From Escherichia phage REP8: a DNA stretch of 64,000 bases. Location: the sequence record OQ174507.1, one strand, 5' to 3'. Under the pieces are notes generated by a model that saw only the letters and a program-made list of their open reading frames with translations, was not told the origin of the DNA and searched no databases. Made by a program: the position numbers and the translations under genes. Shown one piece after another: positions 1 to 51,487 of the stretch (within the stretch, counting starts at the first letter, position 1; each line of letters opens with the position of its first letter).

Positions 1-7171
<7,171 letters not shown>

Positions 7172-7173
7172 TA

Positions 7174-8346
7174 ATGGCAGTAGGTGAAATTCAAATTAGT
7201 GCCTTGCCTCAAGCAGCCTTACCAATTGACCTTAGTGATATCTTCCATCTTAAGCAGGGTATTGAGGATAAGAGATGCACTCTTGAGCAATTACTTGCTC
7301 CACACTCAAGCCTAAGAAATAACCCACATGGTGTTACTAAAACACAAATTGGTTTAGATAATGTTATTAATGCTCTTCAGTTAGTCGCTGCAAATAACTT
7401 ATCAGATATTGTTAATGTAGCTGAGGCAAGAGCAAATCTACAGATTATGTCTTCAGAAGAGGTTAATAGTCTTGTTCAACAGCATATTAATGATAAGAGT
7501 AACCCGCACAATACAACTAAGGCACAGGTAGGGTTGAGTAATGTTCAGAACTGGACAACATCTAACCTTTATAACGAGGATGCAGATAAGTATGCTACAG
7601 CAAGAGCAGTAAATAACTTGTACAAGGCTGTTCAGGCTTCCTATCCAGTAGGTACTATCCATCTTTCCATGAACTCTGCAAACCCTTCTACATATTTAAT
7701 TTGTGGAGGAACTTGGGAGTTGGTTTCAAAAGGTAGGGCATTGGTTGGTTATGCCTCTGATGCAAGACCAGCAGGTTCTGTATTTGGTGCTTCAACTGTC
7801 ACTTTGTCAGTTAATAATATGCCTCAACACTCCCACTCTGTATCACTTAGTGGTGGTGGCCACACTCATAATGCAACTGTGTCAATCTCAGCTTTTGACT
7901 ATGGAACTAAGACTACCAACTCTTTTGACTATGGAACAAAAGCTACTAACACAACTGGCAACCATACACACAATGTATCAGGTAACACAAGCACAAATGG
8001 TACTCACAACCATGATGTGTATCCTAGAGAAAATGATGGTACTGGTAATGCTGTAGCTGACTCTGATGGTGGTGGAGCATGGAGAACATCAAGAACTTCT
8101 AGTGATGGTGCACACTCACACAGTTTTAACGTCACATCTGGTGCATCAGGTGACCACAGCCACACGGTTGGTATTGGTGCTCACAGTCATACTGTTGGTA
8201 TTGGCTCACATACACACAATGGTACTGTGGCAGTTTCTTCTTCTGAGCATACACATAGTGGTAACACAAATAGTGTTGGTGGAGGTCAGGCTGTGAATAT
8301 TGAGCAGCCATCCTTCGTCCTGTATGTATGGCAGAGAACAGCTTAA
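7174..8346 (+). CDS. tail fibre protein with His-rich C-terminal repeats
   Basis: Repeated HSHS/HTHN/GxHxH motifs and tandem FDYGTK repeats in C-terminal half; C-terminus homologous to that of the next gene. Confidence 0.6.
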   Translation: MAVGEIQISALPQAALPIDLSDIFHLKQGIEDKRCTLEQLLAPHSSLRNNPHGVTKTQIGLDNVINALQLVAANNLSDIVNVAEARANLQIMSSEEVNSLVQQHINDKSNPHNTTKAQVGLSNVQNWTTSNLYNEDADKYATARAVNNLYKAVQASYPVGTIHLSMNSANPSTYLICGGTWELVSKGRALVGYASDARPAGSVFGASTVTLSVNNMPQHSHSVSLSGGGHTHNATVSISAFDYGTKTTNSFDYGTKATNTTGNHTHNVSGNTSTNGTHNHDVYPRENDGTGNAVADSDGGGAWRTSRTSSDGAHSHSFNVTSGASGDHSHTVGIGAHSHTVGIGSHTHNGTVAVSSSEHTHSGNTNSVGGGQAVNIEQPSFVLYVWQRTA

Positions 8347-8392
8347 TTTCTTTACAGGGGCTTGATAGCCCCTTTTAAGAGGAAAATTTATA

Positions 8393-10750
8393 ATGGCAGA
8401 TTACAAGTTGAGTGAATTAAACTCAATCGATACAATCCGTTCAGATGACCTTCTTCATGTCAGGGTTAAAAAGAGACCTGAAATGCTAGGTGATGAAGAC
8501 CGTCGAATGACCTATCAAGATTTCTTAGCATCTTTTAAGCTTGAAAGATTTGTTCAGATTGCTGGTAGTACTATGACGGGTGACTTAGGGATTGTTAAGT
8601 TACTTTATGGTGGTAAGGCAGTCTTTGACCCAACAGGCTCTTCTGAGGTTACTATTGGGGATGTTTTAAAGACTTTTAAAATCAACGCAAATGGTCTTAG
8701 ACTAACTATTGCAGATGCTTCAAGGTCAGCAACTGTTTATCATACTCTGAATAAACCAAGTCCTAATGAACTTGGGATGAGAACTAATGAAGAGAATGAT
8801 GCAAGATATGCAAGACTTGCTGTTACAAACTCATTCCAAGCTAAACAGAGTGTCGTAGCAAATGGTGAGCAGTTGACACTGAAGACCCCTGCGGGTGCAA
8901 GTGAGGCATACTCCGCTATTGTAGGTCGAAATGCCAATAATGATAAAACTTGGGCTGTTGGTAATCTAACTCAAGGAAGTCTTGATGTTCATCTCGAAAA
9001 TAGCAGAGGTTCAAGAATCACTCTAGGTGCAATTGTGTCTGTTAATAAGGCTCTTGCTATTACTGGTCAGGTTAAACCCTCTGATTGGTCTAACTTAGAT
9101 GCTAGATACTTTACTCAGACAGCAGCTAATCAGAGATTTGCACAGTTAACTACGAATAACACTTTCACAGGCGCTAATACATTTAGGGATATGCGTGTTA
9201 TCTCGAATTCTGCTGCTGTTACACTACAATGTGCATCAGCAAATGAATCATTTTATCTACTTGGAAAAGATTATCAAGGTGGTAACTCATGGTTTATTGG
9301 TAGAGGTAGTTCTGGAACAGAGGTTACACTCTATAACTATGTTAGTGATACATCTTTAGTGTTGTCTGAGACGGCAAGATTTAATAAGTCTGTAGAAATC
9401 ACTGGTCAAGTACAACCTTCTAATTGGACTAACATTGATTCAAGGTATGTTCCGAGTTCTCTGACAAGAGTTCTTGCAAGGACTGATTTAACTAATACTT
9501 TCACTAAAGCACAGATTATCTCTACTAGCAACGGCAACCTTTTTAGACTACAGACAACAGTACAAGATTCTGAACTCTACATGTCTGCACATAATGCTGA
9601 TGGGAACAGGAGATGGTGGTTGGGTATTGGTGGTGCTGGTCAAACCACAGTGGCACTTACCAATGATGTAACAAAAAAGTCAATCAATCTTGGTACTAAT
9701 TTAGATGTGAATACACATGTGAATATTGTTGGGCAAGTAAGACCAAGTGATTTCTCTAACTTAGACGATAGATACTACACCCAATCTGCCGCAAACTCTA
9801 GGTATATGCTTGCAGGTTATACTGGTGGAGCTTCAGAAGCAGATGGTAGTGATGGTGTTGCATGGAATGCAAAAACAGGATTATACACTGTCTCCAACGC
9901 AGCTAAGACGTATACTTACCTTGTGTATAACATGTTTTCGGGGGATGGTTCCACACCATCTGCACAATTAAAATTTCAGTTTCAAAATGGTGGGATGTGG
10001 TATAGGACATCAAGAGATGCCCATGGCTTCGAAGATAACTGGTCTAAAGTTTACACGGAAGCACAAAAACCAAAACCTTCAGATATTGGTGCATACTCTA
10101 AAGCAGAAACTGACCAGAAGATTGCACAGGCAATTAGTGACTCTACAGACCTTAACAAAATCTATCCAGTAGGCATTGTAACGTGGTTTAACAGTAATGT
10201 TGACCCTAATACAGCACTTCCTGGGTTAACTTGGACGTACCTGAACAATGGTGTTGGTAGAACTATCAGAATTGCAGCAGCAAACGGTTCAGATGTTGCT
10301 ACAACTGGTGGTTCAGATTCTGTGACGTTAGCTGTTGGTAACTTACCATCACACACCCATAGTTTCTCTGCTACCACTTCATCTTTTGATTATGGTACGA
10401 AGGGAACTAACAGTACGGGTGGGCACACTCACTCTGGTAGTGGTTCTACTAGCACAAATGGTGAGCACACTCACTACATTGAGGCGTGGAATGGTACTGG
10501 TAGAGGTGGTGATAAGATGTCATCATATGCCGTATCATACAGGACGGGTGGGAGTTATACTAATGCAGCAGGGAACCACAGTCATACTTTCTCTTTTGGG
10601 ACTAGCGGTGCTGGCGACCATTCCCACTCTGTAGGCATTGGTGCTCACAGCCACACAGTTAGTGGTAACACTGGTGGTACAGGTTCTGGTTCAGCATTTA
10701 GTGTTACTAACCAGTTCTACAAGCTAATGGCTTGGGTGAGAACTGCTTAA
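8393..10750 (+). CDS. long tail fibre protein
   Basis: 785 aa; three internal repeats of GQV[KQR]PS[DN][WF][ST]N[LI]D[AS]RY; His-rich C-terminus shared with 7174-8346. Confidence 0.6.
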
Positions 10751-10828
10751 TCCCTTGTTGACTGATTGTTAAGATGGTGTTAATATTCTTTAGGGTATTC
10801 TCACCATCTTGGCTGATGAGGTGATTAA

Positions 10829-11023
10829 ATGCCTACAATCCTAGCAATTCTTCTAAAAAATCTAGGTAGCTTCTTCTGGAAACTCATTTTATCCCTTCTA
10901 AGTGAATACATGATTGAGAAAGTGTTCTTTAAGCTTGCAAGATACCTTGCGAGTAAAACAGACACACCTATTGATGATGAGTTCGTAGATAACTTAGAAA
11001 AAGCTTTTAAGGGGGAGAAGTAA
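10829..11023 (+). CDS. small hydrophobic protein
   Basis: 64 aa, N-terminal hydrophobic segment. Confidence 0.3.
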   Translation: MPTILAILLKNLGSFFWKLILSLLSEYMIEKVFFKLARYLASKTDTPIDDEFVDNLEKAFKGEK

Positions 11024-11395
11024 ATGAAGTGGTTAGAGGAAGCTTTTAAAAATAATATTGGTGCAATTGTAGTTGGTATTTTTAGTGTTATCGGGATGTA
11101 TACCACGATGCAAGTGTCAAGTGGTAAACAAGAGGTGTCTGTCAAAACAAAGTTACAACAGTTGGATAATTACACAAGTAGCAACTATTCAGCTATTCGT
11201 GATTTACAGTCTGACATGAGACTTATTCAGTTAGGGATGGAGAACCAGAAAGTTCAGTTAGAGAATGTTAAGGGTGAAAACGCAAAACTTACCAAAACTC
11301 TTGATAAATTCTCTGACAGTGTGAACAATCTGGCTCAATCAGTATCAGCCCTCCAAGCTATTACTGAAAAGAACACAAAGAATACTGAAAAATAA
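11024..11395 (+). CDS. membrane-anchored coiled-coil protein
   Basis: N-terminal TM helix (IGAIVVGIFSVIGMY) followed by heptad-like region. Confidence 0.3.
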   Translation: MKWLEEAFKNNIGAIVVGIFSVIGMYTTMQVSSGKQEVSVKTKLQQLDNYTSSNYSAIRDLQSDMRLIQLGMENQKVQLENVKGENAKLTKTLDKFSDSVNNLAQSVSALQAITEKNTKNTEK

Positions 11396-11400
11396 AGTTT

Positions 11401-11430
11401 AAGGCTCCTTTTTACGGGAGCCTTTTTTGT
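11401..11430. terminator. intrinsic terminator (possibly bidirectional)
   Basis: GGCTCC-loop-GGAGCC hairpin followed by TTTTTT; sits between convergent genes. Confidence 0.55.
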
Positions 11431-11431
11431 T

Positions 11432-12331
11432 TTATTTACCTACTGACAAAGGTGCTTCAATCTTTCCTGCATGTTGATAGTTGCTAATACCACCGATAAA
11501 GTCACTTGCAGTAAGATGTTTTAAGTCACTTAAAGTGTTAAGCTGTACACCAATCTCAAAAGTGGGTGCATGGAACTCTTCATTGTTCATCAGTTCATAA
11601 ACCTGTTTCATATGGTTCTGATAAATCTGAGTATCTCCAAAGACACCTATCAAGTACCGTGGAGTGTATCCAGTCATCTTACAAAGAACTTCTAAGATGA
11701 AACCATAAGACGCAATATTAAACGGAAGTCCTAAAAAGGTGTCTACTGAACGCTGATACCATTGCAAATCCACTTCACCCTCGTTAGTGATGTAAATCTG
11801 AAACAGAACATGACAAGGTGCTAAAGCCATCGAGTTGGCTGCAATATCTGCTGCATTCCAAGCATTAACAAGCATGTAACGGTCTGTGATATCACCTTTC
11901 ATCTTCGTTACTAAGGTCTCTAACTGGTCTACAACACAACCGTTATGACCTTCAAAGTTTCTCCACTGAACCCCGTAGATTCTCCCACCTGCATCTTCTA
12001 ACCAGTCTTGTTCAGAAGAATAATTAGAGCTTAACCAGCGTTTAAAATCATCTGACCAGATTGTCCAACGTTCTCCGTCATTTTCACCCCAAGTACGATA
12101 ACGGAGTTCACCCAGCTTATTCTCGCCATTCAGGAACCATAAAGCTTCCCCAATAACTTGCCGTGTAAACACCTGTTTAGATGTTAAGAGCGGGAAACCA
12201 GTTCGCATATCAAAACGAAACTGAGGTGGAGCAAATGCAGAGATGACATCTCCAGTTCGTGTAGTACGCAGTTCACCAACTGATAAAACATGGTTCAGGA
12301 TATTTTTGTAACTCAAATCAGCTTGTGACAT
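11432..12331 (-). CDS. thyA: thymidylate synthase (ThyA family)
   Basis: Motifs LAPCHVLFQ and QRSVDTFLGLPFNIASYG match the ThyA active-site region; a dNMP hydroxymethylase cannot be formally excluded. Confidence 0.65.
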   Translation of the reverse strand: MSQADLSYKNILNHVLSVGELRTTRTGDVISAFAPPQFRFDMRTGFPLLTSKQVFTRQVIGEALWFLNGENKLGELRYRTWGENDGERWTIWSDDFKRWLSSNYSSEQDWLEDAGGRIYGVQWRNFEGHNGCVVDQLETLVTKMKGDITDRYMLVNAWNAADIAANSMALAPCHVLFQIYITNEGEVDLQWYQRSVDTFLGLPFNIASYGFILEVLCKMTGYTPRYLIGVFGDTQIYQNHMKQVYELMNNEEFHAPTFEIGVQLNTLSDLKHLTASDFIGGISNYQHAGKIEAPLSVGK

Positions 12332-12332
12332 A

Positions 12333-12878
12333 TCAAAAGTGTCCTTTTACTTGTGGAACATAAATCTCAAAGGTTGCTTTACCATCATCTGAGGGTCTTG
12401 ACTGCACCTTTGCAAATACACGGCTATCATACAGCTTCTCAAAGAAGTTTTCAAAAGGTAAATACACAGTGGCCTCTTCAGTAACTTTATGGAAAACTGT
12501 ATGGAAAACTACACCAGCATACGGCAAAGCATTGACAAGAACACCTGCACCACCAATTACAAAGACATCTTCATCAATAGAGCTATCAAGATACTTCAAA
12601 AATGCTCCAAATGACTCTTTACTGGCTTTAGCATACATTACATCATCTTTGCCAAAGTCTATGCCTAAGTATGGTACAGAATTTGTTAAGATGAGGTTTG
12701 CACGTTCTGGTAAAGGTTTACTACCCAGAGTCTTAAAAGTCTCATTACCCATAACTACTAAGTTGTCTTTAGTGAGTCTCTTAAACTCTTTCATATCTTG
12801 CTTATGTCGAGGCCACGGCATACCAGTTGGAGTACCGAACTCCCCATTTTCACCACTTGCAAAGATTAATTTAATCAT
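12333..12878 (-). CDS. frd: dihydrofolate reductase
   Basis: N-terminus MIKLIFASGENGEFG..MPWPRHKQDMKEFKRLT..VVMGNETFKTLG fits DHFR signature; adjacent to thyA. Confidence 0.65.
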   Translation of the reverse strand: MIKLIFASGENGEFGTPTGMPWPRHKQDMKEFKRLTKDNLVVMGNETFKTLGSKPLPERANLILTNSVPYLGIDFGKDDVMYAKASKESFGAFLKYLDSSIDEDVFVIGGAGVLVNALPYAGVVFHTVFHKVTEEATVYLPFENFFEKLYDSRVFAKVQSRPSDDGKATFEIYVPQVKGHF

Positions 12879-13135
12879 TTTGTAAACCTTTTCTTAATGA
12901 ACCAGTTGATAACATTCTTCACAGATTTATTGCTATGGTAGATTAAGTGCGGCGTGGGTTGGTATGAACCATAAGCCCAGAAAGCGATAATTTCATTACA
13001 CCCTGTGCATCGGGTACTTTCTTCAGTAATATGACCGTTGACTATTTCACTTACCTCACCTTGTAAGTCTGTACACCCACAATGTGGACATCGGATAGGT
13101 GTCCCATCAGACTCATAGCAGTGTTCAATTTTCAT
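12875..13135 (-). CDS. zinc-ribbon protein
   Basis: CPHCG...CTGCN cysteine pairs. Confidence 0.3.
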   Translation of the reverse strand: MKIEHCYESDGTPIRCPHCGCTDLQGEVSEIVNGHITEESTRCTGCNEIIAFWAYGSYQPTPHLIYHSNKSVKNVINWFIKKRFTK

Positions 13136-19482: not shown

Positions 19483-19750
19483 CATCTGGTCAATACACTC
19501 GCAAGGTGTACCAGTTCTCTTATGAACTTCTCCGCATTTCTACGGAGTGTCGGACTATATCACGTAGTAGTAATACTACCGTTGCACTTGGGAATGGTCA
19601 TTAGCTTACCACCCTACTCTACTCAGTTCATACATTAAGTATGCTTTTCGATAGTCTCTGAACGTTCCTCTCAAGAGGCTTCGCTGCTGATTACCGTATC
19701 TTCTCAGACTTAGGCTTCCAGCAATTCACAACGTTTTACATGCGCCACTG
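19483..19750 (-). ncRNA. putative group I self-splicing intron in DNA polymerase gene (boundaries inferred, +/- a few nt)
   Basis: 268-nt ORF-less insertion inside Pol A motif B; minus-strand R-like GTTCAGAGACTATCG (19664-19649) and S-like GATATAGTCC (19564-19550); 5' exon ends in U, insertion ends in G; joining restores KNGIYALLFGAGDEK. Confidence 0.55.
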
Positions 19751-21923
19751 ACGCATAAATGCCATTTTTGGCTTTCTTACGACCTTTTGTAATCTCGTGG
19801 AGAAGTTCCTCATCCTGTGTCTCCCTGCAACGAACAATATCCTCTTCTTTGTTAAGACCAAAGTAAATACTGTTCAGTGTATGCGCATCAGTCCCTGTGT
19901 AGACTTCATAGAGGTCGTTCTCAGCATCATAACGAAGATACTTATCAGTTTCTGGATTAAGATACTTATCGAGATGCTTGCAATAGTATCTGCCATCTTC
20001 TTGCTTAGTGAACTCTACTGACTCTTTACCCTCAGTTACCGCTTTGGTGAACTCTTTATCACCCATAAAGTTACAAAGAAGAACAAGCTGTGCAGAGTTC
20101 TGGTCAACTGAAACGATATTAGTCCCTTCCTCGCAAATCCAAACCTCCCTCATAGGCGCTCCATAGACAGCAGCACCAGACGGTACGTTTACAATACCAT
20201 ATTGTGTCATACGTCCAGTTGAAGTACCAAACACCATTGCACCAGCACTAAGGCGACCATCAGGACGAATCTGGTTCAACCAACCTTTTTCATCATCCTT
20301 TGAGTTCTCAATAGTTCTGCGTCGGTGCATCAAAGTATAGTACTTAGCAATCTTCTGTCCAAGCTCACCTTCAATCGTGTCATAAGATGATTCAGTAAGT
20401 TTTGGTGAAGTACGGATTAAGCAAGGCTCAAGCAAATCTGTGTATTTCTTCACAGACCAGTTATGTTCAATGTACTGTACACCTTCATGCTCAACATAGC
20501 TCAAACCACACCGCTCAACCATTTCCTGCCACTTAGGATGCTTTGTAATCATCTTTTTATTGTCTTTGAAACGACAAACTTTAACAGGGCGACCATCTGA
20601 GTCTTTCTTGTAGTTCCAGTCATCTGGAATCCAACCAACTGATTTCAAGTAGTCTTTAACAACTGCTACCTGAGTCATACGAGAAACTTCAAACTCAATT
20701 GGTGTATACGGTGCATCAATCAAACCTGTGTAGCGACTCGACTCAAGCTCAAAGTGGTTAACAACGTGGCTGTTATAGTACTTCACAGTTTTGACTGTTT
20801 TTACTGGCTTCCAGTCTTTGCATTTCTTACCAATCTTTGCGTTCAACTCATTGCAAATTGCACGAGCATCCTTCATTGCTACAAAACCTTCTTTGTACTC
20901 TTCACCAGTTACAGAGTTGGTTGGTGTATAGCAATTCCGCTTTTCAATGTTAAAAATCTTTGTAGTTGGCTTACCAAATGGCTTGATTTCATATGTCTGC
21001 ATCTCACCGTTACGTACCTGTTGACGATACTTTGTCTTAGGGTACTTGGTAATTCTCTTCAGTCCATCTGCATGACCAAATGCTTCAACATACTCATTCC
21101 AAGCTTTTGCAAACTCTTCTCCAGTGACTTTACCTTTGGTCTTAATAGTTGGAGGTAGATGTGGTTCAACCTCTGAAGCAAGCTCATTAGTCAACTTGTC
21201 AAGTTCCTTTACATGGAACTCCATAAGTTCTTTATCAGCTTTCCAGCCATTGATAGCTTGTTGACTCATCCAGAAAGATGTTTCTTTAGCTCGCATGTAG
21301 GTTTCATAGGTGTCTACGCCACACTTCTTTAGCTTCAGATATTCATTATCCAATGCACGTTTAGTTTTGGCGTTGATACGGATATCTTCTACAACACGAG
21401 TGAAGATTTCTGCATTCCACACACCCCAATGTTCAATCTCTGGTTTACGAACACCAACACGAGCACCCCATGCAGCCAAGCCATGAGCACCTTTATAACC
21501 CTTTGGAGTTGGCCTATCCATCCACTGAACACGAGACTGGATAAGAGAATCCTGAAAGAAATTACTCCACGGTTTACACTTTGGATTATCAAAGTTCCAT
21601 AAATCAGGTGCAATGTGATTGAAAACCCACCAGTCATAACCGAGACCGTTATGGATGCAAAGACGTTTTGCCTTTAACGCAAATTCAACACCTTCACGTA
21701 AACCACCCTTGATGTACTTAGTGTACTTGTGACCGAGGATAGGTTCATCTGTAAAGACCCATACAGGTGGCTCTTCATCGTCAGATTTATAGTCTGCGAA
21801 AGCCATTACGTGCACTTTAGTGAACTCAAGAAGTAAACCATCAGTTTCTGTATCACCAACTAAATGTAAGTTTTTAAAATCTACGTTTTCCATTTTTACT
21901 CCCTCTAAAATCATTAACCTCAT
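19751..21923 (-). CDS. DNA polymerase (family A, T7-like), exon 1 with 3'-5' exonuclease domain
   Basis: DTETDG Exo I motif; VSVDQNSAQLVLL motif A; RKKAKNGIY start of motif B; the ORF then reads into the insertion for 12 codons before a stop. Confidence 0.7.
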
Positions 21924-27757: not shown

Positions 27758-28798
27758 ATGGAGAAGTACACATTAACAAAACTTCCCGATTCAGTTACAC
27801 ATGTTTTTATTGACTCTGACAGTATTGCCTATAAAGGTGCTTGTGTAGTTGAGAAAGCAAAATATAAATATGTCAATAAACTCACAGCAGAAGAGTCTGA
27901 GCCATTTGATAATGCGAAAGATGCTGCAAGATGGTTAGCAGACCAGAGAATCCTTGTGGAAGAGCTTGGTCTGACATTTGATGAAGATGAATGGGAAAGA
28001 CAGACTTGGAAAGAAGCTAAGAGTGAAAAAGAAGCTATCATGGCTACTCAACAGGTGCTTCAGGAATGGCTTAAGGTTGTTGGTAAAGAGAGAACTTGGG
28101 TAGGTTATTTAACAGAGAAAGGTGTGCATAAACATAAAGACATTAAAGGTCTTGAGCACCAATATCAAGGGAACCGTAAAGATGCTGTCACACCAACACA
28201 CTTAGTTGCTTGTCGTGAATACCTTTTATCCAGACCAGAGTTCAAGCTGATTCTTGATGGATTTGAAGCTGACTCTATCGTTATTGCTAAAGCTGAAAAG
28301 ATGGGAAAAAAGGCTGCCTTAATGAGTATTGATAAAGACCTTCGCCAAGCTGAAGGGACTTACTGCATTGATATGACCTATGAAAAGTCGCCTTTGATTT
28401 TTATTGCTGATAACAACGTTGGTGAAATTTGGGATTGTCCAATAAAATCGACACCAAAAGCTAAGAAGACAGTTGGTGTGGGTTTTAAATTCCTTTGTTA
28501 TCAAGCTGTGGCTGGTGACAATGCTGATAATTATTTTGGTTTAAAGGGCGTTGGTAAGGCTACTGTAATGAAAGCCCTTGAAGGTAAAAATACTTATAAA
28601 GAGTGTCTTGATGCTATCTATGAACTTTATGCTAAGAAAGAGTCATACACTTATGTATCATGGGATGGTCAAACAATTACCAGAACACCTTTAGAGTTAA
28701 TGCAGCAACACTTTTTCTTAGCTTATCAGGAAAGAAATAAGAAAGACGATTTTACTTTTAAGAAATATAATTGGGAGCCGTGTATGAATGAAGATTAA
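27758..28798 (+). CDS. 5'-3' exonuclease / flap endonuclease
   Basis: Acidic-residue N-terminal domain and helix-3-turn-helix-like NYFGLKGVGKATVMKAL. Confidence 0.55.
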   Translation: MEKYTLTKLPDSVTHVFIDSDSIAYKGACVVEKAKYKYVNKLTAEESEPFDNAKDAARWLADQRILVEELGLTFDEDEWERQTWKEAKSEKEAIMATQQVLQEWLKVVGKERTWVGYLTEKGVHKHKDIKGLEHQYQGNRKDAVTPTHLVACREYLLSRPEFKLILDGFEADSIVIAKAEKMGKKAALMSIDKDLRQAEGTYCIDMTYEKSPLIFIADNNVGEIWDCPIKSTPKAKKTVGVGFKFLCYQAVAGDNADNYFGLKGVGKATVMKALEGKNTYKECLDAIYELYAKKESYTYVSWDGQTITRTPLELMQQHFFLAYQERNKKDDFTFKKYNWEPCMNED

Positions 28799-29285
28799 AG
28801 GATTTGGTAATTGCCCCACCTATGGTCATTGGGTATCTTTATGTGGGGAAGTTGACCCCACTAAACATTTTGGTTTTGTCTATTTAGTACACTGTAAGAA
28901 AACCGGACAATATTATATAGGAAGGAAACAGTTTAACAGTGTTACCAAAAGAAAAGTTGCTGGAAAGACTCGGAAGAAGGTAGTCACTAAGGAGAGTGAT
29001 TGGATGACTTATGAGACTTCTTCTGAGTATATTAAAAAAGATATTGAGAGCTTTGGAAAAGAATTTTTTGACTTTTACATTATTCAGACCTACTACACAA
29101 AAGGTGGCCTAGTTTATGGTGAAGCAAACCTTCAACATAAGTTCGATGTAATGACAAAAAGGATTGACTCGAAGCTCAGACTCTTCTACAATGCCAATAT
29201 TGCAGCAATTAAGTTTATCACTAAAGAAACTTATGAAGATGCTGAAAAAAGAATCCATAAGGTAATGAAAGCAAATTGTGCTTGA
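28788..29285 (+). CDS. GIY-YIG-like nuclease
   Basis: GFVYLVHCKKTGQYYIGRK matches GIY-(~9)-YIG spacing; overlaps 3' end of exonuclease gene. Confidence 0.4.
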   Translation: MKIKGFGNCPTYGHWVSLCGEVDPTKHFGFVYLVHCKKTGQYYIGRKQFNSVTKRKVAGKTRKKVVTKESDWMTYETSSEYIKKDIESFGKEFFDFYIIQTYYTKGGLVYGEANLQHKFDVMTKRIDSKLRLFYNANIAAIKFITKETYEDAEKRIHKVMKANCA

Positions 29286-35071: not shown

Positions 35072-36268
35072 ATGAACAAAGTACAGATTATTAAAAAGAA
35101 TGGCTCACTCGAAGAACCTGATATCAAAAAAGTTTTAACAGCAGTCACAAAGTCAGCTAATAGGGTTGGGTATAAAGAACTCCCGCCAGATGTTACCCAA
35201 GCTCTTGAGTCAGCATTTATGAGGGTTCTGGTAAAATCCACTAAGCAGAATAATTTACTCGTTTCAGTAAATGATATTCACAGTATTGTTGAGGGTGCTT
35301 TGGCAGAAGTCAATCACGAGATTTATGAGTCTTACTCAACATATAGAAATTACCGTAAAGAGGTTGCTCAAAACTGGGATGAACTCTACCAGAAGACTAA
35401 AGATACACTCTTCTTAGGTGACCGTGAAAATGCTAATTTTGACAGCAGTTTAATTTCTACGAAAGGTTCAATTATCCGTGGTTACCTGACTAAAGAAATC
35501 TTTAAACAGTATCATCTAACACCAGAGGAACTTGAAGCCATTGAGAAAGGCTTTGTCTATATCCATGATTTAAGAGACCTGATTTTTGGTGGTATTAACT
35601 GTTGCCTGTTTGACATTGGTAAAGTACTAAAAGGTGGCTTTGAAATGTCCGGCATTGAGTACTGTGAACCTAAATCTGTACTGTCAGCGTTGCAGGTTAT
35701 TGGTGACGTAGTACTTTCAGCAACTGCACAGCAATTTGGTGGTTTTACTTTAGCAGAGATTGATAAGGTACTTGTACCGTATGCGAAGAAGTCTCTACGC
35801 TATCATGCTGAGAAAGCATCATCTTATGGTATCCCTAAAGAGCATTACCACAATTATGTCATGGAGCAGCTACAGATTGAACTGACTCAAGGTTTCCAGT
35901 CGCTTGAAATGAAACTAAACACTGTACCTTGTAGTCGTGGGGATTTTGCATTTACAACTTTGACATTCGGGTTACTTGACTCAGACATGTCTAATGAAGA
36001 CAACCGACTGCAATACATGATTGCAAGTACTCTCCTAGATGTTCGTATGAATGGACAAGGTAAGAGTAAGAAGCCTGTTGTATTCCCTAAACTGGTTTAT
36101 ATTTATGACCAGAAGAGACATAATGAGAATATCTGTCAAGGCCACCTGTACAGTAAAGCTATAGAGTGTTGCTCTAAAGCGATGTATCCAGATTTCTTAA
36201 GTGTATCTGGTCATGGTGCTGTAGCAGAAGCTTTTGAGCGTTCTGGTAAGGTTATTTCACCGATGGGT
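35072..36268 (+). CDS. nrdD: anaerobic ribonucleotide reductase, exon 1
   Basis: ORF ends ...VISPMG then TAA; continuation found in frame at 36585. Confidence 0.7.
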
Positions 36269-36584
36269 TAACAAGCTCTATAGCTCATCTAAAACGTGCC
36301 TAAACAGGGAAACTCTACAGATGTAGACAATCCTGTGCTAAATGATGTACGATGTAAGAAACTATACAACATAGGGGTCTTACATGCCAAATAACTTCGA
36401 ATATGAGTTTGGATACATCTAAATGCCGAACGACTAACCGTGATGAATGTAGCGGTGTAGGGTCAAGCGACTCGAAATGGTACGCTACTTAGAAATAAGT
36501 AGAAGATATAGTCTGGACTTACTGGCGACAGTAAGCAGCTTGAATAAAGCGGGGTAAGCGTAGCGAACTTACCTGAACAACAAG
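36269..36584 (+). ncRNA. putative group I self-splicing intron in nrdD
   Basis: 316-nt ORF-less insertion; 5' exon ends in U, insertion ends in G; S-like AAGATATAGTCTGG (36503-36516) and R-like CGAACGACTAACC (36428-36440); downstream frame encodes CRAFLSPYHNEDGEEFYVGRANIGAVSLNLP. Confidence 0.55.
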
Positions 36585-38313: not shown

Positions 38314-38799
38314 ATGAATTACATGGAGATTAGGCCATTTGATACAGCTAATGGTGAAGGGGTTCGTGTAAGCCTCTTCGTAGCTGGTTGTAAGCATCAC
38401 TGTGAAGGCTGCTTTAACAGGGAGTCTTGGAAGTTTAATGCTGGTAAAGAGTTTACCTATGCAAACCTCTACGGCATCATTAAGTTAATGGATGATAATG
38501 ATGTCAGTGGTTTGTCAATACTTGGTGGAGAACCTCTGGATGATAGAAATATTCAAGAGGTTACCAACATATGTAAACGTATTAAAACTGTTTATCCAGA
38601 GAAGACTATATGGCTCTGGACAGGTTTTCAGTTACACGAAAAAATTCACCTAGATGTGATGAAATATGTTGACGTGGTTATTGATGGTAAGTATGATTCA
38701 TCTAAACCAACAGTTAAACCATATCGTGGTTCTGATAACCAAAACCTCTGGAGAAAAGAGTATGGGTGGCAAGGTGATTGTCAATGGCGAGCAGAGTGA
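38314..38799 (+). CDS. nrdG: anaerobic ribonucleotide reductase activating protein (radical SAM)
   Basis: CKHHCEGC matches CxxxCxxC radical SAM cluster; follows nrdD. Confidence 0.7.
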   Translation: MNYMEIRPFDTANGEGVRVSLFVAGCKHHCEGCFNRESWKFNAGKEFTYANLYGIIKLMDDNDVSGLSILGGEPLDDRNIQEVTNICKRIKTVYPEKTIWLWTGFQLHEKIHLDVMKYVDVVIDGKYDSSKPTVKPYRGSDNQNLWRKEYGWQGDCQWRAE

Positions 38800-39037
38800 T
38801 TATTCTGGCAAGTGGACTTATGACATCAACAAGTTAGATACCTGGATGATTTATACGAGAGAAAAATTTGGTGCACGTTCATTATGTGCTCTTGCAACGA
38901 TGGTGAAGAACGTTACCTTTGACATTCATGAATCTGATAAGTTTGGAGACTTCTACAGGATTCAAAACATCAGAGAAGGTATAACTCCAATCGGTATCAC
39001 TGAAGAAGAACTTCATAAGTTCTGTATCAAACTTTAA
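38762..39037 (+). CDS. hypothetical protein
   Basis: ATG at 38762 overlapping nrdG 3' end. Confidence 0.25.
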   Translation: MGGKVIVNGEQSDYSGKWTYDINKLDTWMIYTREKFGARSLCALATMVKNVTFDIHESDKFGDFYRIQNIREGITPIGITEEELHKFCIKL

Positions 39038-39040
39038 TGA

Positions 39041-39319
39041 GTGAGACTAAAAATGGGAATTTTAGGTAATATGAAAGCTGGCTTCTTGAAGGCACTGGCA
39101 AAAGCAGCAGCAATCATTTCTATGACTGGAAAGCAGGTTGGTGTGGATGCTTCAGCAATTACACAAGTTCTTGCAAGCCAAATTGAACAGCAACCTTACA
39201 TCCACGTAGGACGTGGAAAAGGTGGTAAGAAACAAGCACATCGACCAACTGGTGCAGCAGCTATTAAACGAGCAGCTAAAAAAGCTCGTAACCGTAAACG
39301 TAACAAGAAGGCTAAATAA
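39041..39319 (+). CDS. hypothetical basic protein
   Basis: Lys/Arg-rich C-terminus. Confidence 0.25.
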   Translation: MRLKMGILGNMKAGFLKALAKAAAIISMTGKQVGVDASAITQVLASQIEQQPYIHVGRGKGGKKQAHRPTGAAAIKRAAKKARNRKRNKKAK

Positions 39320-39653: not shown

Positions 39654-39682
39654 AAGGGAACTGTAAAGGTTCCCTTTTTATT
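39654..39682 (+). terminator. intrinsic terminator
   Basis: GGGAAC-loop-GTTCCC hairpin followed by TTTTTATTTT. Confidence 0.5.
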
Positions 39683-39693
39683 TTGGAGATAAA

Positions 39694-40209
39694 ATGTATC
39701 TGTCAAACCTGAAACGTTCGGCTGCAATGTCAGTGTTAAGACTCAGCTTTGAGGAACGTCAAGAGTTCATTGACTCCCACCAATACGACCCCTCAAACTC
39801 CAATCACATGATTCTCTGGAATCGTGAAAGTGCTCGTGAAAGAGCACTATTCCGTTATTACCCACACTACACCATAGACAACCTGTATGAATGTTTTGTT
39901 GTGAAGAACACCATTACAGTACTCAATAAACTTTGCAGATACACAGGTAGTCAATCCTTCACATTAGGCCACCACAAACCTGTTACAAAGGGTGGTGAGC
40001 ATCACTGTGCAAACTGGTTTATCCAGACTAAACTTGATAACCAGAAGCAGGGAGATAACCTTCTAAGCACACCTAAGATGACCTACGAAGAACAAGAGAA
40101 ATATATCAAAAATAATATGCCAGATGTGCTTGACAACAACTATACAGATTTGGCAATATCTCTCCTGTTGAAGTTCGAGACAGTTTATAGGGCAACTTAT
40201 AATGGCTAA
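39694..40209 (+). CDS. HNH-like nuclease
   Basis: LGHHKPVTKGGEHHCANW...N resembles the HNH His/Asn core; weak. Confidence 0.3.
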   Translation: MYLSNLKRSAAMSVLRLSFEERQEFIDSHQYDPSNSNHMILWNRESARERALFRYYPHYTIDNLYECFVVKNTITVLNKLCRYTGSQSFTLGHHKPVTKGGEHHCANWFIQTKLDNQKQGDNLLSTPKMTYEEQEKYIKNNMPDVLDNNYTDLAISLLLKFETVYRATYNG

Positions 40210-40480
40210 AGAAAAGTGGGAGATTTTACCATTAGTCAGTGAAGGAGGTAATGGTTGTGAGATGTACATGATACGTGGTCATGTTCCAGAACCAATTGCA
40301 CTTGAGATGGTAAACAACTTTACAGATGGTTCTTACAAAGACTTAGGAGAGCCAACTATAAAGCATCAATGGGTAAAGCCTGTACCAGACAGCACAGGTA
40401 ACTGTAGTGTACTTTACCACGTTGTAGACCCTGTAAAATGCAAATCTGCAATGGCAGTAACAAACGTAACTTTTGATTGA
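40202..40480 (+). CDS. hypothetical protein
   Basis: ORF only. Confidence 0.25.
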   Translation: MAKEKWEILPLVSEGGNGCEMYMIRGHVPEPIALEMVNNFTDGSYKDLGEPTIKHQWVKPVPDSTGNCSVLYHVVDPVKCKSAMAVTNVTFD

Positions 40481-41373
40481 GAGAGAAAACTATGAAAACA
40501 TCTATCCGTGTCACAATTCATTCACCGACTAAAGGAACTCACGAAGAAGAGTTTAACATCATCCAATTCCCCTCTGGTGAGATTGGTGGCCACTTTTCAC
40601 AAGAGCTTGTTGATTTTACTGCTTATGCAGCATCATCTATTAACAATGTGGTTATGATTGTAAAGGGTTATGACAAAGACACACTGTTTGCTGTGGCACT
40701 GGCTAAAGAAGCAATTGACGATTTAGTTCCTCATGATTATGCCCTGAAGACTGTCATTTTTTACTACTTGCCAAATGCACGATACGACCGTCACATGTTT
40801 AAAGGCGACGCAGCAGCTTTAAAGGTTTTTGCTAAACAGGTAAATGCAATGGGATTTGGTGCAGTCTGTGCAGTTGACCCTCACAGTTATGTACCAGATA
40901 ACCTGTTTAACTGCTTCCAAAGTATTCCTCAAAAGGAAATTGCAGTCCATTATGCAAATGACCCTCTGATTGATTACTTAGTAGCCCCAGATGCAGGTGC
41001 TTCTAAGAAGATTGCAGAGACTGCTAAAGAGGTGGATAAACCATATATCACAATGTCTAAAGTACGTAACCTTAAGACTGGTGAAATTACTGGTATGCGA
41101 ATCCTTGATGATGTTGATTTGACAGATAAAACCGTCATGATTCTGGATGATATCTGTGATGGTGGTCGAACCTTCGTAGAAGCAGCGAAACATCTTCGTG
41201 AAGCAGGTGCAAAACGTGTGGAACTTTATGTAACACATGGTATTTTCTCTAAAGGTGTTGAAAACTTACTTGACAATGGTATTGACCACATCTACACTAC
41301 AAACTCTTTAGGAGAAGCTAAAGACCGTAGCTTAACACATTATAGTCAAGTTACTGTAGCAAACCTTGATTGA
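40477..41373 (+). CDS. ribose-phosphate pyrophosphokinase-like enzyme (Prs family; candidate ADPR-PP synthetase)
   Basis: PRPP-binding motif VMILDDICDGGRT; ~300 aa; immediately upstream of NAMPT-like gene. Confidence 0.6.
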   Translation: MREKTMKTSIRVTIHSPTKGTHEEEFNIIQFPSGEIGGHFSQELVDFTAYAASSINNVVMIVKGYDKDTLFAVALAKEAIDDLVPHDYALKTVIFYYLPNARYDRHMFKGDAAALKVFAKQVNAMGFGAVCAVDPHSYVPDNLFNCFQSIPQKEIAVHYANDPLIDYLVAPDAGASKKIAETAKEVDKPYITMSKVRNLKTGEITGMRILDDVDLTDKTVMILDDICDGGRTFVEAAKHLREAGAKRVELYVTHGIFSKGVENLLDNGIDHIYTTNSLGEAKDRSLTHYSQVTVANLD

Positions 41374-41382
41374 AAGTTTATA

Positions 41383-41404
41383 GGGGCTTAAAAGCCCCAT
41401 TTTG
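41383..41404 (+). terminator. hairpin with weak T-tract (possible attenuator)
   Basis: GGGGCT-loop-AGCCCC followed by ATTTT. Confidence 0.35.
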
Positions 41405-41418
41405 AGAGAGATTAAAAG

Positions 41419-43200
41419 ATGACTAAATCACTTTATGCAGTACCAGCAGGTCTTAATGCAGATGCTTACAAGGCATCACATATATATCAGTATCCAGATG
41501 CTACGCAATATCTTATGTTGAACCTGACACCACGTAGTGATAAATGGTTTAACAGCCCCTTAGCAATTGATGGTGTAGTTGCTTTTGGTATTCAACGTTT
41601 TGTTAAAGATTACTTGATAGACCACTGGAACGCCACTTTCTTTGAACGTGATAAAAAAGAAGCAGTTGACGAAATCTTAGAAGTCATGAATGGTGTTCTG
41701 GGTAAAGATGCTATCGGTCGAGAGCATTGGGAAGCACTTCACGATTTAGGCTATCTACCAGTTGAAGTATACGCTGTAGAAGAAGGTACAGTTGTTCCTA
41801 TGCGTGTTCCAATGATTGTCTTCCAGAACACTGTTTCAGGTTTCCATTGGGTAGCAGGTTATCTGGAAGATGCTTTCTCTGCTGAGATTTGGAAGGCTTG
41901 TACCATTGCAACTATCGCATTGCACTACAAACGCATCTGTAAGAAGTGGGCTGACCTTACTTGTGACAACGACTTACATTTACCTTATCAGTGTCACGAC
42001 TTTGCTATGCGTGGTATGTCCGGCTTTACTGATGACGCATTTAATGCTGTAGGTCACTTAACCAGCTTTAAAGGAACTGATAGCTTCCCTGCTGTATATA
42101 CAGCTAAACGTATCTATGGTCAGTCTTACCCAATCTCTGATATTGGTAGTTCTGTACCAGCCACTGAACACTCTGTAATGTGTGCAAACATTGCTTGGGA
42201 AGGTGGTAATGAGTTGATTGAAGAAGAAAGACGCTTTAAAGGTGAGTTGCAAACCTTCCGTCGTTTCTTAACAGAAACTTACCCAACTGGTATTGCAAGC
42301 ATTGTTTCAGATACTTATAACTTCTGGAGAACTGTGTCAGAAATCTTACCAGCACTCCGTAAAGAGATTATGGAACGTGATGGCAAACTGGTAATTCGTC
42401 CTGACTCTGGAGACCCTGTACATATTGTCACAGGTTATAAAGCAATCCACTTAGAGTGTGCTAAAAAGGCTTATTACGAACACTTAAGCAAGCTTGAAGC
42501 CAGCGACACAATGTTGAATGCTGTTCTGAACATGAAGCTTGAAAACATCAATTATGGTATTGCTGGATGGCTACTGTCAGAAGGCTACGAAATGGTTGTT
42601 GACAGAGAAGACTTTGAAGTTGCTGATACAGTGCTGTTGAAAAACGCTTATATGGTTGGTTCTGCAAACGTTGTAACACGTCCTGTAGCTGAGATTGATG
42701 GAGCTATTAAGACACTGTACAACATCTTTGGGGGAACTATTAACTCTAAAGGGTTTAAGGTACTGGATGAGCACATCGGCCTTATCTATGGTGACTCTAT
42801 CACGTTGGAACGTGCAAACGAAATCCTGAAGCGTTTGTATGAAATGGGTTTTGCAAGCTCTAACGTAGTGTTTGGCGTAGGTTCTTACACTTACCAGTAC
42901 ATGACTCGTGACACCTTTGCATTTGCTGTCAAAGCAACTCTTGCAAGCATTGGTGGTAAAGAGATTATGCTTGCAAAAGACCCTAAAACAGATAGTGGTG
43001 TTAAGAAATCTGCTTTTGGTGGTGTAGCACCTATGTGGGATGGTGATAAGTTGAAAGCTGTAGATGGCTATGGATTCCAGAGCTTTGCAGATGTACTTGA
43101 ACATCCAGCTTGTGCTTTACGTTTAATCTTTAGCGACTCTGAGCAGTTCGGTTACACAACGCTTGGTGATATTCGAAATAATATTGACAAGCAGCTTTAA
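41419..43200 (+). CDS. nicotinamide phosphoribosyltransferase-like enzyme (NAMPT family)
   Basis: 593 aa; overall resemblance to NAMPT/NadV as recalled; paired with Prs-like gene. Confidence 0.6.
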   Translation: MTKSLYAVPAGLNADAYKASHIYQYPDATQYLMLNLTPRSDKWFNSPLAIDGVVAFGIQRFVKDYLIDHWNATFFERDKKEAVDEILEVMNGVLGKDAIGREHWEALHDLGYLPVEVYAVEEGTVVPMRVPMIVFQNTVSGFHWVAGYLEDAFSAEIWKACTIATIALHYKRICKKWADLTCDNDLHLPYQCHDFAMRGMSGFTDDAFNAVGHLTSFKGTDSFPAVYTAKRIYGQSYPISDIGSSVPATEHSVMCANIAWEGGNELIEEERRFKGELQTFRRFLTETYPTGIASIVSDTYNFWRTVSEILPALRKEIMERDGKLVIRPDSGDPVHIVTGYKAIHLECAKKAYYEHLSKLEASDTMLNAVLNMKLENINYGIAGWLLSEGYEMVVDREDFEVADTVLLKNAYMVGSANVVTRPVAEIDGAIKTLYNIFGGTINSKGFKVLDEHIGLIYGDSITLERANEILKRLYEMGFASSNVVFGVGSYTYQYMTRDTFAFAVKATLASIGGKEIMLAKDPKTDSGVKKSAFGGVAPMWDGDKLKAVDGYGFQSFADVLEHPACALRLIFSDSEQFGYTTLGDIRNNIDKQL

Positions 43201-43213
43201 AAGTATATGATAA

Positions 43214-43238
43214 GAGGCTCCTACGGGAGCCTTTTTAA
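43214..43238 (+). terminator. intrinsic terminator
   Basis: GGCTCC-loop-GGAGCC followed by TTTTT. Confidence 0.55.
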
Positions 43239-50701: not shown

Positions 50702-51487
50702 ATGGGTATTGTAAAAATCATCAAAGGTGATATCTTTGACGCCTTTGATAAAGGTAAATTTGATATCATTGGTCATGGTTGCAACTGTATGAATTTCATG
50801 GGTGCAGGTATTGCAGCAACTATTTCTAAGCGTTATCCAAAAGTGTATGATACTGACACAGAAGTTTACCTGTTTGCAGGTGGCATTCGTCACAAACCCT
50901 GTGAAAATTTACTGGGTAATTTCTCCGTAGCACGTTTAAAACAAGGTCGTGTAGCTAACCTTTACACCCAACTCCATACTGGTAAAGATGCCCGATACAG
51001 CGCTTTAGAGTCATCTTTGAAGAAACTTAACAGATACTGTGAAGTTAACCAGTTGAAGAAGGTCGGTCTACCTATGATTGGTGCAGGTATCGGTGGACTT
51101 GACCCTCAAGCTGTCACAGTTATCATTAATCAGGTGATGAAGAGTGTAGATGTTTATCTGTATGTCTACGAGACAGAGATGTACAACGAGTTACACTCAG
51201 GTTGGAAGAACTACTGTGAACCAGAATACTTTGCAGGTGTAGCAGTGTTCACAGATAATGCAGTTACCCTCTTCAGACGAAGACAAGGTAAGGTACATCA
51301 AAGTAACCCTCCGGTTGAAAAGATGTCTCTAAGTAACGCTCTAGTTACCCACCTGTCGAAGAGCAGTCACAGGATTGCAGTAACATTTGGCAGTGATGCA
51401 GATGCTTACATCTATGCAAGAACTGATGAGGATATCGAGACGGTTTTCTCTTCACCAGAAGTTACCTTCTTAGACGCAAAGAACTAA
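50702..51487 (+). CDS. macro domain protein (ADP-ribose binding/processing)
   Basis: IKGDIFD...DIIGHGCNCMNFMGAGIA...LPMIGAGIGGL matches macro-domain Gly-rich loops. Confidence 0.55.
   Translation: MGIVKIIKGDIFDAFDKGKFDIIGHGCNCMNFMGAGIAATISKRYPKVYDTDTEVYLFAGGIRHKPCENLLGNFSVARLKQGRVANLYTQLHTGKDARYSALESSLKKLNRYCEVNQLKKVGLPMIGAGIGGLDPQAVTVIINQVMKSVDVYLYVYETEMYNELHSGWKNYCEPEYFAGVAVFTDNAVTLFRRRQGKVHQSNPPVEKMSLSNALVTHLSKSSHRIAVTFGSDADAYIYARTDEDIETVFSSPEVTFLDAKN

Follow-up and report, generated by a model that had tools for sequence, protein, structure and literature searches.

The adps and namat genes of a Felixounavirus

The window analyzed here is a 64,000-nt stretch of Escherichia phage REP8 (OQ174507.1). 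It originates from a Felixounavirus, and its positions 40477–43200 are 100% identical to Escherichia phage REP9. Two intact ORFs lie on the plus strand, a Prs-family gene and, downstream of it, a NAMPT-family gene, separated by a spacer of 45 nt (table 1). Their family profile matches bear out the original prediction that a Prs-like gene adjoins a NAMPT-like gene, and we name them adps and namat after the ADPR-PP synthetase (Adps) and nicotinamide ADPR transferase (Namat) of NARP1. The first gene had been placed from 40477, but that position is a TTG and overlaps the upstream stop codon. The gene truly starts with the ATG at 40492, which is preceded by GAGAGAG and is the annotated start in REP9 and Bas63. 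The same ribosome-binding context is found upstream of the namat start. The quoted motif VMILDDICDGGRT is present at aa 215–227 of Adps (nt 41134–41172).

The arrangement is conserved across phages. The 2.7-kb adps–namat stretch matches 259 phage records, with 222 covering at least 80% of it, and adjacency of the two genes is also kept in 28 IMG/VR loci. A Namat homologue adjoins 97% of Adps-clade genes (Osterman et al., bioRxiv 10.1101/2024.02.11.579819). Given this coverage across records and the reported adjacency, the pairing is not due to chance.

A GC-rich hairpin is located in the spacer. The 60-nt stretch that contains it folds with −12.8 kcal/mol (z = −2.7), and across eight related loci, among them relatives whose Namat is 75% identical, the stem stays the same and the loop varies. 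A consensus terminator scan made no call at this hairpin; we infer a possible role in weak termination, attenuation, or RNA stability. A terminator-like hairpin that starts 12 nt past the namat stop codon is likely the 3′ end of the transcription unit, and a terminator-like site upstream is likely its 5′ boundary. Because of the position of this likely boundary, the unit may include small ORFs at 39694–40209 (171 aa) and 40202–40480 (92 aa). Apart from a weak HNH-like match, all that these ORFs match are PHROGs without assigned function, and they were rejected as NARP1 accessories on these grounds. The 171-aa ORF was also rejected because in Justusliebigvirus phages tens of kb separate its distant homologues from NARP1.

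Table 1. Coordinates of genes, residues, and RNA-level features at and near the locus (window positions)
Feature	Position	Strand	Description
Upstream terminator-like site	39654..39676	+	Terminator scan
adps	40492..41373	+	Prs-family, 293 aa; ORF with Pfam, NCBIfam, and PHROG matches
Adps catalytic K190	41059-41061	+	Aligned with SPbetaL1 K162
Adps ribose-phosphate loop DDICDGGRT	within 41134-41172	+	
Spacer GC hairpin	41383..41398	+	GGGGCTTAAAAGCCCC then ATTTT; in the 45-nt adps–namat spacer
namat	41419..43200	+	NAMPT-family, 593 aa; ORF with Pfam and NCBIfam matches
Namat clamp loop K42-W43	41542-41547	+	TPRSDKWFNSPL, identical to the Bas63 loop
Namat variable insertion, aa 258-278		+	Lineage-specific
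Namat variable insertion, aa 340-427	42436-42699	+	Lineage-specific
Namat clamp helix GSYTYQYMTRD, aa 488-498	42880-42912	+	Fits GSxΦxΦxΦTRD
Intrinsic-terminator-like hairpin and T-run	43212..43235	+	10-bp stem, 5 GC pairs, then TTTTTAATTT
Macro-domain gene, 261 aa	50702..51487	+	REP9 annotation "phosphatase"; Pfam Macro 29.9 bits (cut-off 22)

Family membership and conserved residues

Adps has Pfam matches to Pribosyltran and Pribosyl_synth. A profile comparison against bona fide Prs had been proposed as a check, and its outcome agrees with the prediction: the protein passes only the broad Prs subfamily model TIGR01251 ribP_PPkin and falls below every NCBIfam Prs equivalog cut-off. Its best equivalog score is 103.9 bits versus a cut-off of 296, and the other equivalog models score 44–65 bits versus cut-offs of 438–536 (e.g., 56.8 vs. 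536). Bit scores to individual proteins are 120 for Adps of Vibrio phage Quinn, 98 for Adps of Bacillus phage SPbetaL1, and 61 for Escherichia coli Prs, to which identity is 25–27%. Residues for diphosphoryl transfer common to Prs (F26/G29/E30, R97/D99/R100, H131, D167, R192, D219-D220, and T227) are invariant in an alignment of the window protein, Bas63, SPbetaL1, and E. coli Prs. The catalytic lysine is likewise retained; SPbetaL1 K162 is the equivalent of Bacillus subtilis Prs K197 and its K162A mutant is inactive. Sequence comparison places the Prs-like protein in the phage Adps clade and not among bona fide Prs, a membership that rests on orthology and a comparison of five sequences. Residual synthesis of PRPP by Adps may occur, as the broad subfamily model is passed at 122.5 bits versus a cut-off of 113.

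Namat has Pfam NAPRTase and NAMPT_N matches and scores 469.8 bits to NCBIfam PRK09198 (cut-off 405). Its match to the crystallized SPbetaL1 Namat (9w5w) has an E value of 4e-129, versus ∼1e-40 for human NAMPT. All published Namat hallmarks are present. The clamp helix fits GSxΦxΦxΦTRD, the motif of the Namat ADPR-PP clamp, and the clamp loop between beta1 and beta2 is described as providing a stacking residue, either Arg at position 3 or a Lys/Tyr followed by the stacking residue (PMC12774641). Residue mapping identified the complete catalytic core, F195, R198, D221, H251, R327, and D329, corresponding to F189, R192, D215, H245, R306, and D308 of SPbetaL1 Namat (PMC12774641). Of the two lineage-specific insertions, the one of 88 aa had no meaningful PDB or Pfam match in a sequence search.

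The closest characterized relative is NARP1 of Bas63 (Escherichia phage JohannRWettstein), encoded by bas63_0079 and bas63_0080 and belonging to the same genus as the window. The two phages share the order nrdG, genes 79–80, rIIA, equal protein lengths, and a spacer of equal size. Namat is 98% identical to Bas63_0080 (579/593), and the two proteins share both insertions as well as all residues of catalysis and clamp. Adps is in the same genomic position as Bas63_0079 and is 78% identical to it, but its N-terminal ∼180 aa are the other of two anciently diverged alleles.

More distant is NARP1 of SPbetaL1, which defined the biochemistry from ADPR through ADPR-PP to NAD+ and provided Namat structures 9w5w and 9w5x (PMC12774641). 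It has the same two-gene architecture, Adps catalytic lysine, Namat core, and clamp helix as the window, despite identities of 30% (MAFFT) or 34% (BLASTP) for Adps and 47% for Namat. Adenine stacking involves Arg40 in the SPbetaL1 clamp loop, whereas the window has a Lys-Trp pair, as modeled for Bas63. SPbetaL1 Namat also lacks the insertions of 21 and 88 aa, and its genes abut, with the end of adps being the start base of namat, in contrast to the hairpin-containing spacer of the window.

NARP1 versus classical NAD+ salvage

We conclude with high confidence that the adps–namat pair is NARP1 of a Felixounavirus, as had been predicted. Orthology and synteny tie the two genes to Bas63 genes 79–80, and the published catalytic and specificity residues, including the Namat-specific adenine clamp, are all kept. 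NARP1 is already known and was discovered in a phage of the same genus, so the novelty of the finding is low. Our literature search found no solved Adps structure, and no paper naming Felixounavirus and NARP1 together beyond those cited here.

In the proposed mechanism, an immune effector of the SIR2, TIR, or SEFIR type would cut NAD+ into ADP-ribose and nicotinamide. Adps would then move a diphosphate from ATP to the 1″ position of ADP-ribose, yielding ADPR-pyrophosphate (ADPR-PP), and Namat would swap the pyrophosphate for nicotinamide to give NAD+ directly. Because the two enzymes regenerate NAD+, phage replication is predicted to continue in cells with NAD+-depleting defenses. Both reactions were reconstituted in vitro with SPbetaL1 enzymes and followed by metabolomics in cells infected with Bas63, in which ADPR-PP (m/z 720.010) was seen only with both the Bas63 operon and a defense system (bioRxiv 10.1101/2024.02.11.579819). 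Deletion of Bas63 genes 79–80 sensitized the phage ∼20-fold to SIR2-HerA and deepened NAD+ depletion, the effect of the operon is independent of host pncC and nadR, and SPbetaL1 NARP1 counters type I Thoeris, DSR1, DSR2, and SEFIR (bioRxiv 10.1101/2024.02.11.579819). By analogy, the enzymes of the window phage, including its divergent Adps N-terminal allele, are predicted to have the same activity.

The names and models in databases favor a different reading, a classical NAD+ salvage or metabolic takeover in which a true PRPP synthetase and an NMN-making transferase leave completion of NAD+ to host NadR or PncC. TIGR01251 and PRK09198 are passed, and SPbetaL1 Namat makes NMN from PRPP in vitro with an activity about half that of human Nampt (PMC12774641). 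However, the Bas63 orthologues overcome SIR2-HerA in a host without pncC and nadR, and a Prs assay with SPbetaL1 Adps yielded no measurable product (ribose-5-phosphate and ATP according to the legend; bioRxiv 10.1101/2024.02.11.579819). The adenine clamp, needed only for use of ADPR-PP, is intact in the window Namat but absent from a KVP40-type Nampt control, which has GMGGGLLQQLDRD at the clamp-motif columns, and the first protein is below all Prs equivalog cut-offs. Nor do the window ORFs scanned with Pfam include a cytidylyltransferase (Nmnat), NadR, or Nudix family member, and the REP9 genome annotation lists none. To check for an Nmnat, 38 further ORFs of the window were scanned with Pfam in place of a NatV tblastn; in phage V09, sought as a source of a NatV probe, the neighbors of NadV are not Nmnat. 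Since the Bas63 operon functions without host pncC and nadR, SPbetaL1 Adps made no measurable product in the Prs assay, and no Nmnat was found among the window ORFs scanned, we consider classical salvage extremely unlikely as the role of the pair. Some classical activity beside NARP1 is nevertheless possible, judging from the NMN made by SPbetaL1 Namat. A REP9 "NAD synthetase" (window 28788–29285) was rejected as a further NAD gene because it is a SegE-type GIY-YIG endonuclease.

NARP1 also differs from NARP2 as represented by the NadV Nampt and NatV Nmnat of Vibrio phage KVP40, although both involve the NAMPT superfamily and restore NAD+. The KVP40-type NadV is only ∼28% identical to the window Namat, and the aromatic clamp motif is missing from it. 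NARP2 uses PRPP and needs an Nmnat, whereas the window has a Prs-like Adps partner. The gene content thus indicates that the locus is not NARP2: Adps is present, the NAMPT homologue has a clamp, and no Nmnat, Nudix, or RyR gene was found among the window ORFs scanned. The RyR domain (PF02026), which would point to a RyDEP-extended NARP1, had no match in the flanking ORFs or the 38 other window ORFs.

Felix-O1-like phages are widely used in typing, biocontrol, and therapy. Database labels of "ribose-phosphate pyrophosphokinase" and "nicotinamide phosphoribosyltransferase" persist for genes that are really Adps and Namat, and because of this wide use, knowing their identity is of practical value. 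NARP1 reverses damage by many unrelated NAD+-depleting systems (SIR2-HerA, DSR1/2, type I Thoeris, and SEFIR) instead of inhibiting them one by one, and its presence helps predict the host range of phages and their usefulness in therapy. Points beyond the known pathway are the Adps allele that is the commoner of the two, the variable insertions of Namat, and a possible unlinked phosphatase.

Adps alleles and an unlinked Macro-domain gene

Nucleotide identity to Bas63 falls abruptly, from 95–100% to 57–85%, in a segment that coincides exactly with the first ∼540 nt of adps. In the protein, the first ∼180 aa (nt 40492 to ∼41030) are 67% identical to Bas63 and the C-terminal 113 aa are 96% identical. 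Adps proteins of Felixounaviruses form two discrete allele classes, with identities of 91–100% within and 66–71% between classes. Among the related loci and records examined, the window-type allele is commoner (∼158 phage records vs. ∼94 of the Bas63 type). The allele that has been tested experimentally is that of Bas63, not the commoner one.

The sharp drop in identity and the discreteness of the classes could mean that the divergent N-terminal allele alters function, for example through other substrates, other regulation, or escape from an Adps-targeting host factor, such that the operon is not the equivalent of that of Bas63. We judge such a functional difference between the two ancient alleles to be very unlikely. 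Between alleles dS is 1.37 and dN/dS 0.165, versus a dS of 0.2–0.4 in the flanks, which argues against rapid adaptive change; positive or diversifying selection on the N-domain was rejected on the same values. The divergence points instead to an old allele under purifying selection that was brought in by recombination. Both alleles, like SPbetaL1 Adps, keep all Prs-family catalytic residues of the N-terminal half. Moreover, both alleles are paired with the same Namat (95–99% identity), and allele class is unlinked to Namat variants. Co-variation of the N-domain allele with Namat substitutions at aa 19–34 was rejected, as the two are independent in 28 related loci; at locus L016, for example, the Adps is of the window type and the Namat N-terminus of the Bas63 type.

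In Thalassavirus phages, NARP1-AP comprises Adps, a Macro-domain phosphatase (Adpp), and Namat; it was described in Vibrio phage Gary (bioRxiv 10.64898/2026.01.28.702374), and we examined Vibrio phage Quinn. Adps of Quinn is 38% and Namat ∼38–52% identical to those of the window, and the Quinn clamp, GSFTYQYVTRD, has the same motif. The three-gene architecture is absent from the window. No Macro-domain match was found in most of the nearest flanking ORFs (at least two on each side; overlapping small ORFs at 38666–39037 and 39041–39319 were each scanned in one reading frame). A Macro-domain gene is, however, located outside the operon, ∼7.5 kb downstream.

The protein encoded by this gene might be an accessory, Adpp-like phosphatase. 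In addition to NARP1 itself, it would dephosphorylate ADPR-1″-phosphate and supply Adps, so that NAD+ could also be rebuilt after cleavage by aRES-type RES-domain defenses. Its Macro domain is above the Pfam cut-off. Its best PDB matches are OARD1/TARG1, also the top solved relatives of the Quinn Macro protein, and it has a weak match to Poa1p. With the Quinn protein, whose gene lies between adps and namat, it shares 31% identity (E = 7e-16). Quinn and Gary are of the same genus, and Gary Adpp is a demonstrated ADPR-1P phosphatase (bioRxiv 10.64898/2026.01.28.702374). Yet the window gene is ∼16 genes away from the operon, past rIIA/rIIB, pnk, and a spanin gene. The Macro family occurs in ∼3,000 phage records, many from T-even phages, and the window protein is nearer to those copies (35–39%) than to the Adpp-like protein of Quinn. 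It also has an extra C-terminal domain of 100 aa. On balance, we regard a role of this protein with NARP1 as doubtful, albeit a more credible proposition than classical salvage or a functional shift between Adps alleles. The published survey covered only genes at most two genes from NARP1 (bioRxiv 10.64898/2026.01.28.702374), and an unlinked copy would therefore be missed. If the protein does act with Adps and Namat, protection against noncanonical NAD+ cleavage would be wider than the published 15% of NARP1 operons, a figure for which Macro genes were counted only up to two genes away.

Gene pair and the founding NARP1 operon

Two intact ORFs on the + strand encode, in order, a Prs-family and a NAMPT-family protein. 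The original prediction of this adjacent pair holds, with its motif VMILDDICDGGRT located at residues 215–227 of the first protein, except for the proposed start. The TTG at 40477 overlaps the stop codon of the upstream ORF. In related genomes the gene is annotated from the ATG at 40492, which has GAGAGAG upstream; the start of the second gene has the same upstream context. Scores exceed the cut-offs of the broad NCBIfam Prs subfamily model TIGR01251 (122.5 bits; cut-off 113) and of PRK09198 (469.8 bits; cut-off 405), respectively.

Features of the NARP1 locus and other genes considered
Feature	Coordinates	Strand	Description
Group I intron	19530–19813	−	61.7 bits
Group I intron	36161–36535	+	55.4 bits
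Terminator-like hairpin	39654–39676		5' boundary of four-ORF set
Small ORF	39694–40209	+	171 aa; upstream of adps
Small ORF	40202–40480	+	92 aa; upstream of adps
adps	40492–41373	+	Pfam Pribosyltran and Pribosyl_synth; NCBIfam TIGR01251; PHROG 619
Spacer hairpin	41383–41398		GGGGC-loop-GCCCC
namat	41419–43200	+	Pfam NAPRTase and NAMPT_N; NCBIfam PRK09198; PHROG 448
First Namat insertion	42190–42252		aa 258–278
Second Namat insertion	42436–42699		aa 340–427
Intrinsic-terminator-like hairpin	43212–43235		3' boundary of four-ORF set
Macro gene	50702–51487	+	261 aa; N-terminal Macro domain; annotated 'phosphatase'

The two genes are orthologues of the founding operon of NAD+ reconstitution pathway 1 (NARP1), genes 79–80 of Bas63 (JohannRWettstein; MZ501086), likewise a Felixounavirus, in which they occupy the same neighborhood. 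Namat is identical to Bas63_0080 at 579 of 593 positions (98%) and Adps to Bas63_0079 at 228 of 293 (78%), without gaps. NARP1 was discovered by deleting "operon 79-80" of this BASEL phage (Osterman et al., bioRxiv 10.1101/2024.02.11.579819). On SIR2-HerA cells the mutant plates ∼20-fold lower and NAD+ depletion is deeper, ADPR-pyrophosphate (ADPR-PP) is seen only when operon and defense system are together, and the effect of the operon is independent of host pncC or nadR (bioRxiv 10.1101/2024.02.11.579819). In biochemical assays of the homologous enzymes from the Bacillus phage SPbetaL1, Adps converts ADPR and ATP to ADPR-PP, and Namat converts ADPR-PP and nicotinamide to NAD+ (bioRxiv 10.1101/2024.02.11.579819).

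The window genes very probably constitute NARP1. Adps would use ATP to convert the ADPR left by NAD+-depleting immunity to ADPR-PP, from which Namat would form NAD+, countering that immunity. The database labels Prs and NadV are functionally misleading for this pair. The pathway is not new: it was first described in a member of Felixounavirus.

Residues and variation in Adps and Namat

The ATP-binding and diphosphoryl-transfer residues of the Prs family are invariant in Adps. Its K190 is the counterpart of SPbetaL1 K162, which is equivalent to K197 of Bacillus subtilis Prs and inactivates SPbetaL1 Adps when mutated (bioRxiv 10.1101/2024.02.11.579819). Adps misses the cut-offs of all curated Prs equivalog models by wide margins, and with pairwise scores of 120 bits to Adps of the Vibrio phage Quinn, 98 to that of SPbetaL1, and 61 to E. 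coli Prs, it groups on these scores with the NARP1 enzymes and not with E. coli Prs.

A structural study describes a catalytic core common to Namat and Nampt and an adenine "selectivity clamp", part of which is the beta1-beta2 loop (PMC12774641). Mapping SPbetaL1 Namat residues onto the window protein identified the equivalents D15, Y17, F195, R198, D221, A248, H251, R327, D329, and G458-D459. The clamp motif is GSYTYQYMTRD (residues 488–498), and the clamp loop, with the pair K42-W43, is identical to the Bas63 loop modeled in that study. In contrast, the KVP40-type Nampt of NARP2 (Nampt plus Nmnat), used as a negative control, has GMGGGLLQQLDRD at the clamp-motif columns, without aromatic residues. 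In sequence, Namat is also much nearer to the crystallized SPbetaL1 enzyme (E = 4e-129) than to human NAMPT (∼1e-40). The original prediction of NARP1 is supported by orthology to Bas63 79–80 and by retention of K190 and of the core and clamp residues.

Relative to SPbetaL1 Namat, the Felixounavirus enzyme has two insertions, which are its least conserved parts (24–50% identity to sister genera; core, 77–91%). Quinn Namat has a shorter insertion at the second site. Neither Felixounavirus insertion matches PDB or Pfam, and the word "insertion" is absent from the structural paper (PMC12774641). In the sequence, the second falls after the ribose-binding strand with R327/D329 and before the phosphate-binding element G458-D459. 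On these comparisons, the insertions are lineage-specific.

Nucleotide identity to Bas63 drops sharply to 57–85% in a stretch that coincides exactly with the opening ∼540 nt of adps (to ∼41030), with flanks at 95–100%. Across 28 IMG/VR loci and ∼250 phage records, the N-terminal domain of Adps exists as two discrete alleles, 91–100% identical within and 66–71% between classes (67% amino acid identity), of which the window has the commoner and Bas63 the rarer. Between alleles, dS is 1.37 (0.2–0.4 in the flanks) and dN/dS is 0.165, indicating that the allele is old, was exchanged by recombination, and has been kept under purifying selection. Allele class is unlinked to Namat variants, and the two recombine independently. 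The divergence is not evidence of different function; it is a small caveat because the experimentally tested allele is not that of the window.

Related pathways and an unlinked Macro gene

Neither a Macro nor an RyR domain is present in most of the nearest flanking ORFs, which sets the operon apart from the three-gene NARP1-AP, which adds the Macro-domain phosphatase Adpp, and from the RyDEP form with an RyR-domain gene. Among 38 further window ORFs scanned with Pfam, none matched a cytidylyltransferase, NadR, Nudix, RyR, or additional Macro family, and no Nmnat is listed in the annotation of phage REP9. The REP9 "NAD synthetase" (165 aa; 28788–29285, +) is a SegE-type GIY-YIG homing endonuclease (Pfam E = 1.7e-28); its annotation is therefore wrong and the gene is unrelated to NAD. 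Together, these results exclude NARP2.

The published survey was confined to positions within two genes of NARP1, and a dispersed NARP1-AP would place its phosphatase elsewhere. The unlinked Macro protein is a candidate ADPR-1''-phosphate phosphatase serving NARP1: its closest solved structures are OARD1/TARG1, it weakly matches yeast Poa1p, and it shares 31% identity (E = 7e-16) with the Macro protein encoded between adps and namat in Quinn. Quinn is a congener of phage Gary, whose Adpp dephosphorylates ADPR-1''-phosphate and so rescues NARP1 from aRES defense (bioRxiv 10.64898/2026.01.28.702374). However, the Macro family occurs in ∼3,000 phage records, many of T-even phages (counted irrespective of NARP1), and the window protein is nearer to the copies in those records than to that of Quinn. 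We consider it unlikely that this protein serves NARP1. Its C-terminal domain of ∼100 residues is unexplained.

Transcription unit and genomic setting

Between two terminator-like hairpins are four tightly packed ORFs: two small ORFs, adps, and namat. The small ORFs could belong to the same transcript as NARP1. The 171-aa product shows an HNH-like motif (weak PHROG match), and its distant homologues in other phage families are unlinked to NARP1. The 45-nt adps-namat spacer contains a GC hairpin; the 60-nt stretch with it has a folding energy of −12.8 kcal/mol (z = −2.7), and among relatives with Namat identity as low as 75%, the stem is invariant and the loop variable. An attenuator or stabilizer role is conjecture. 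In related loci L012–L014, L018, L031, and L032, an HNH/AP2 homing-endonuclease gene of ∼150 codons replaces the hairpin (spacer ∼515 nt), making the spacer a homing site.

The 2.7-kb stretch (40477–43200) is identical in Escherichia phages REP9 to REP12, and over 200 Felix-O1-like phages whose hosts are Escherichia, Salmonella, Shigella, and Citrobacter share 90–96% identity with it. The taxonomy in the REP9 record places that phage in the genus Felixounavirus (Ounavirinae). Neighboring nrdA/B, nrdD/G, rIIA/B, and pnk are compatible with a nucleotide-metabolism region. By coordinate arithmetic, window segments 1–13091 and 13092–64000 span the ends of the REP9 record, and its source would then be another record of that phage, permuted differently; gene order across those ends, likewise calculated, is tail and tail-fiber genes, thyA, frd, and then replication genes. 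Two group I introns exceed the Rfam gathering score, each interrupting a different gene: that for DNA polymerase in one case and nrdD (anaerobic ribonucleotide reductase) in the other. The Bas63 copy of the nrdD intron contains a homing-endonuclease ORF that the window copy lacks.
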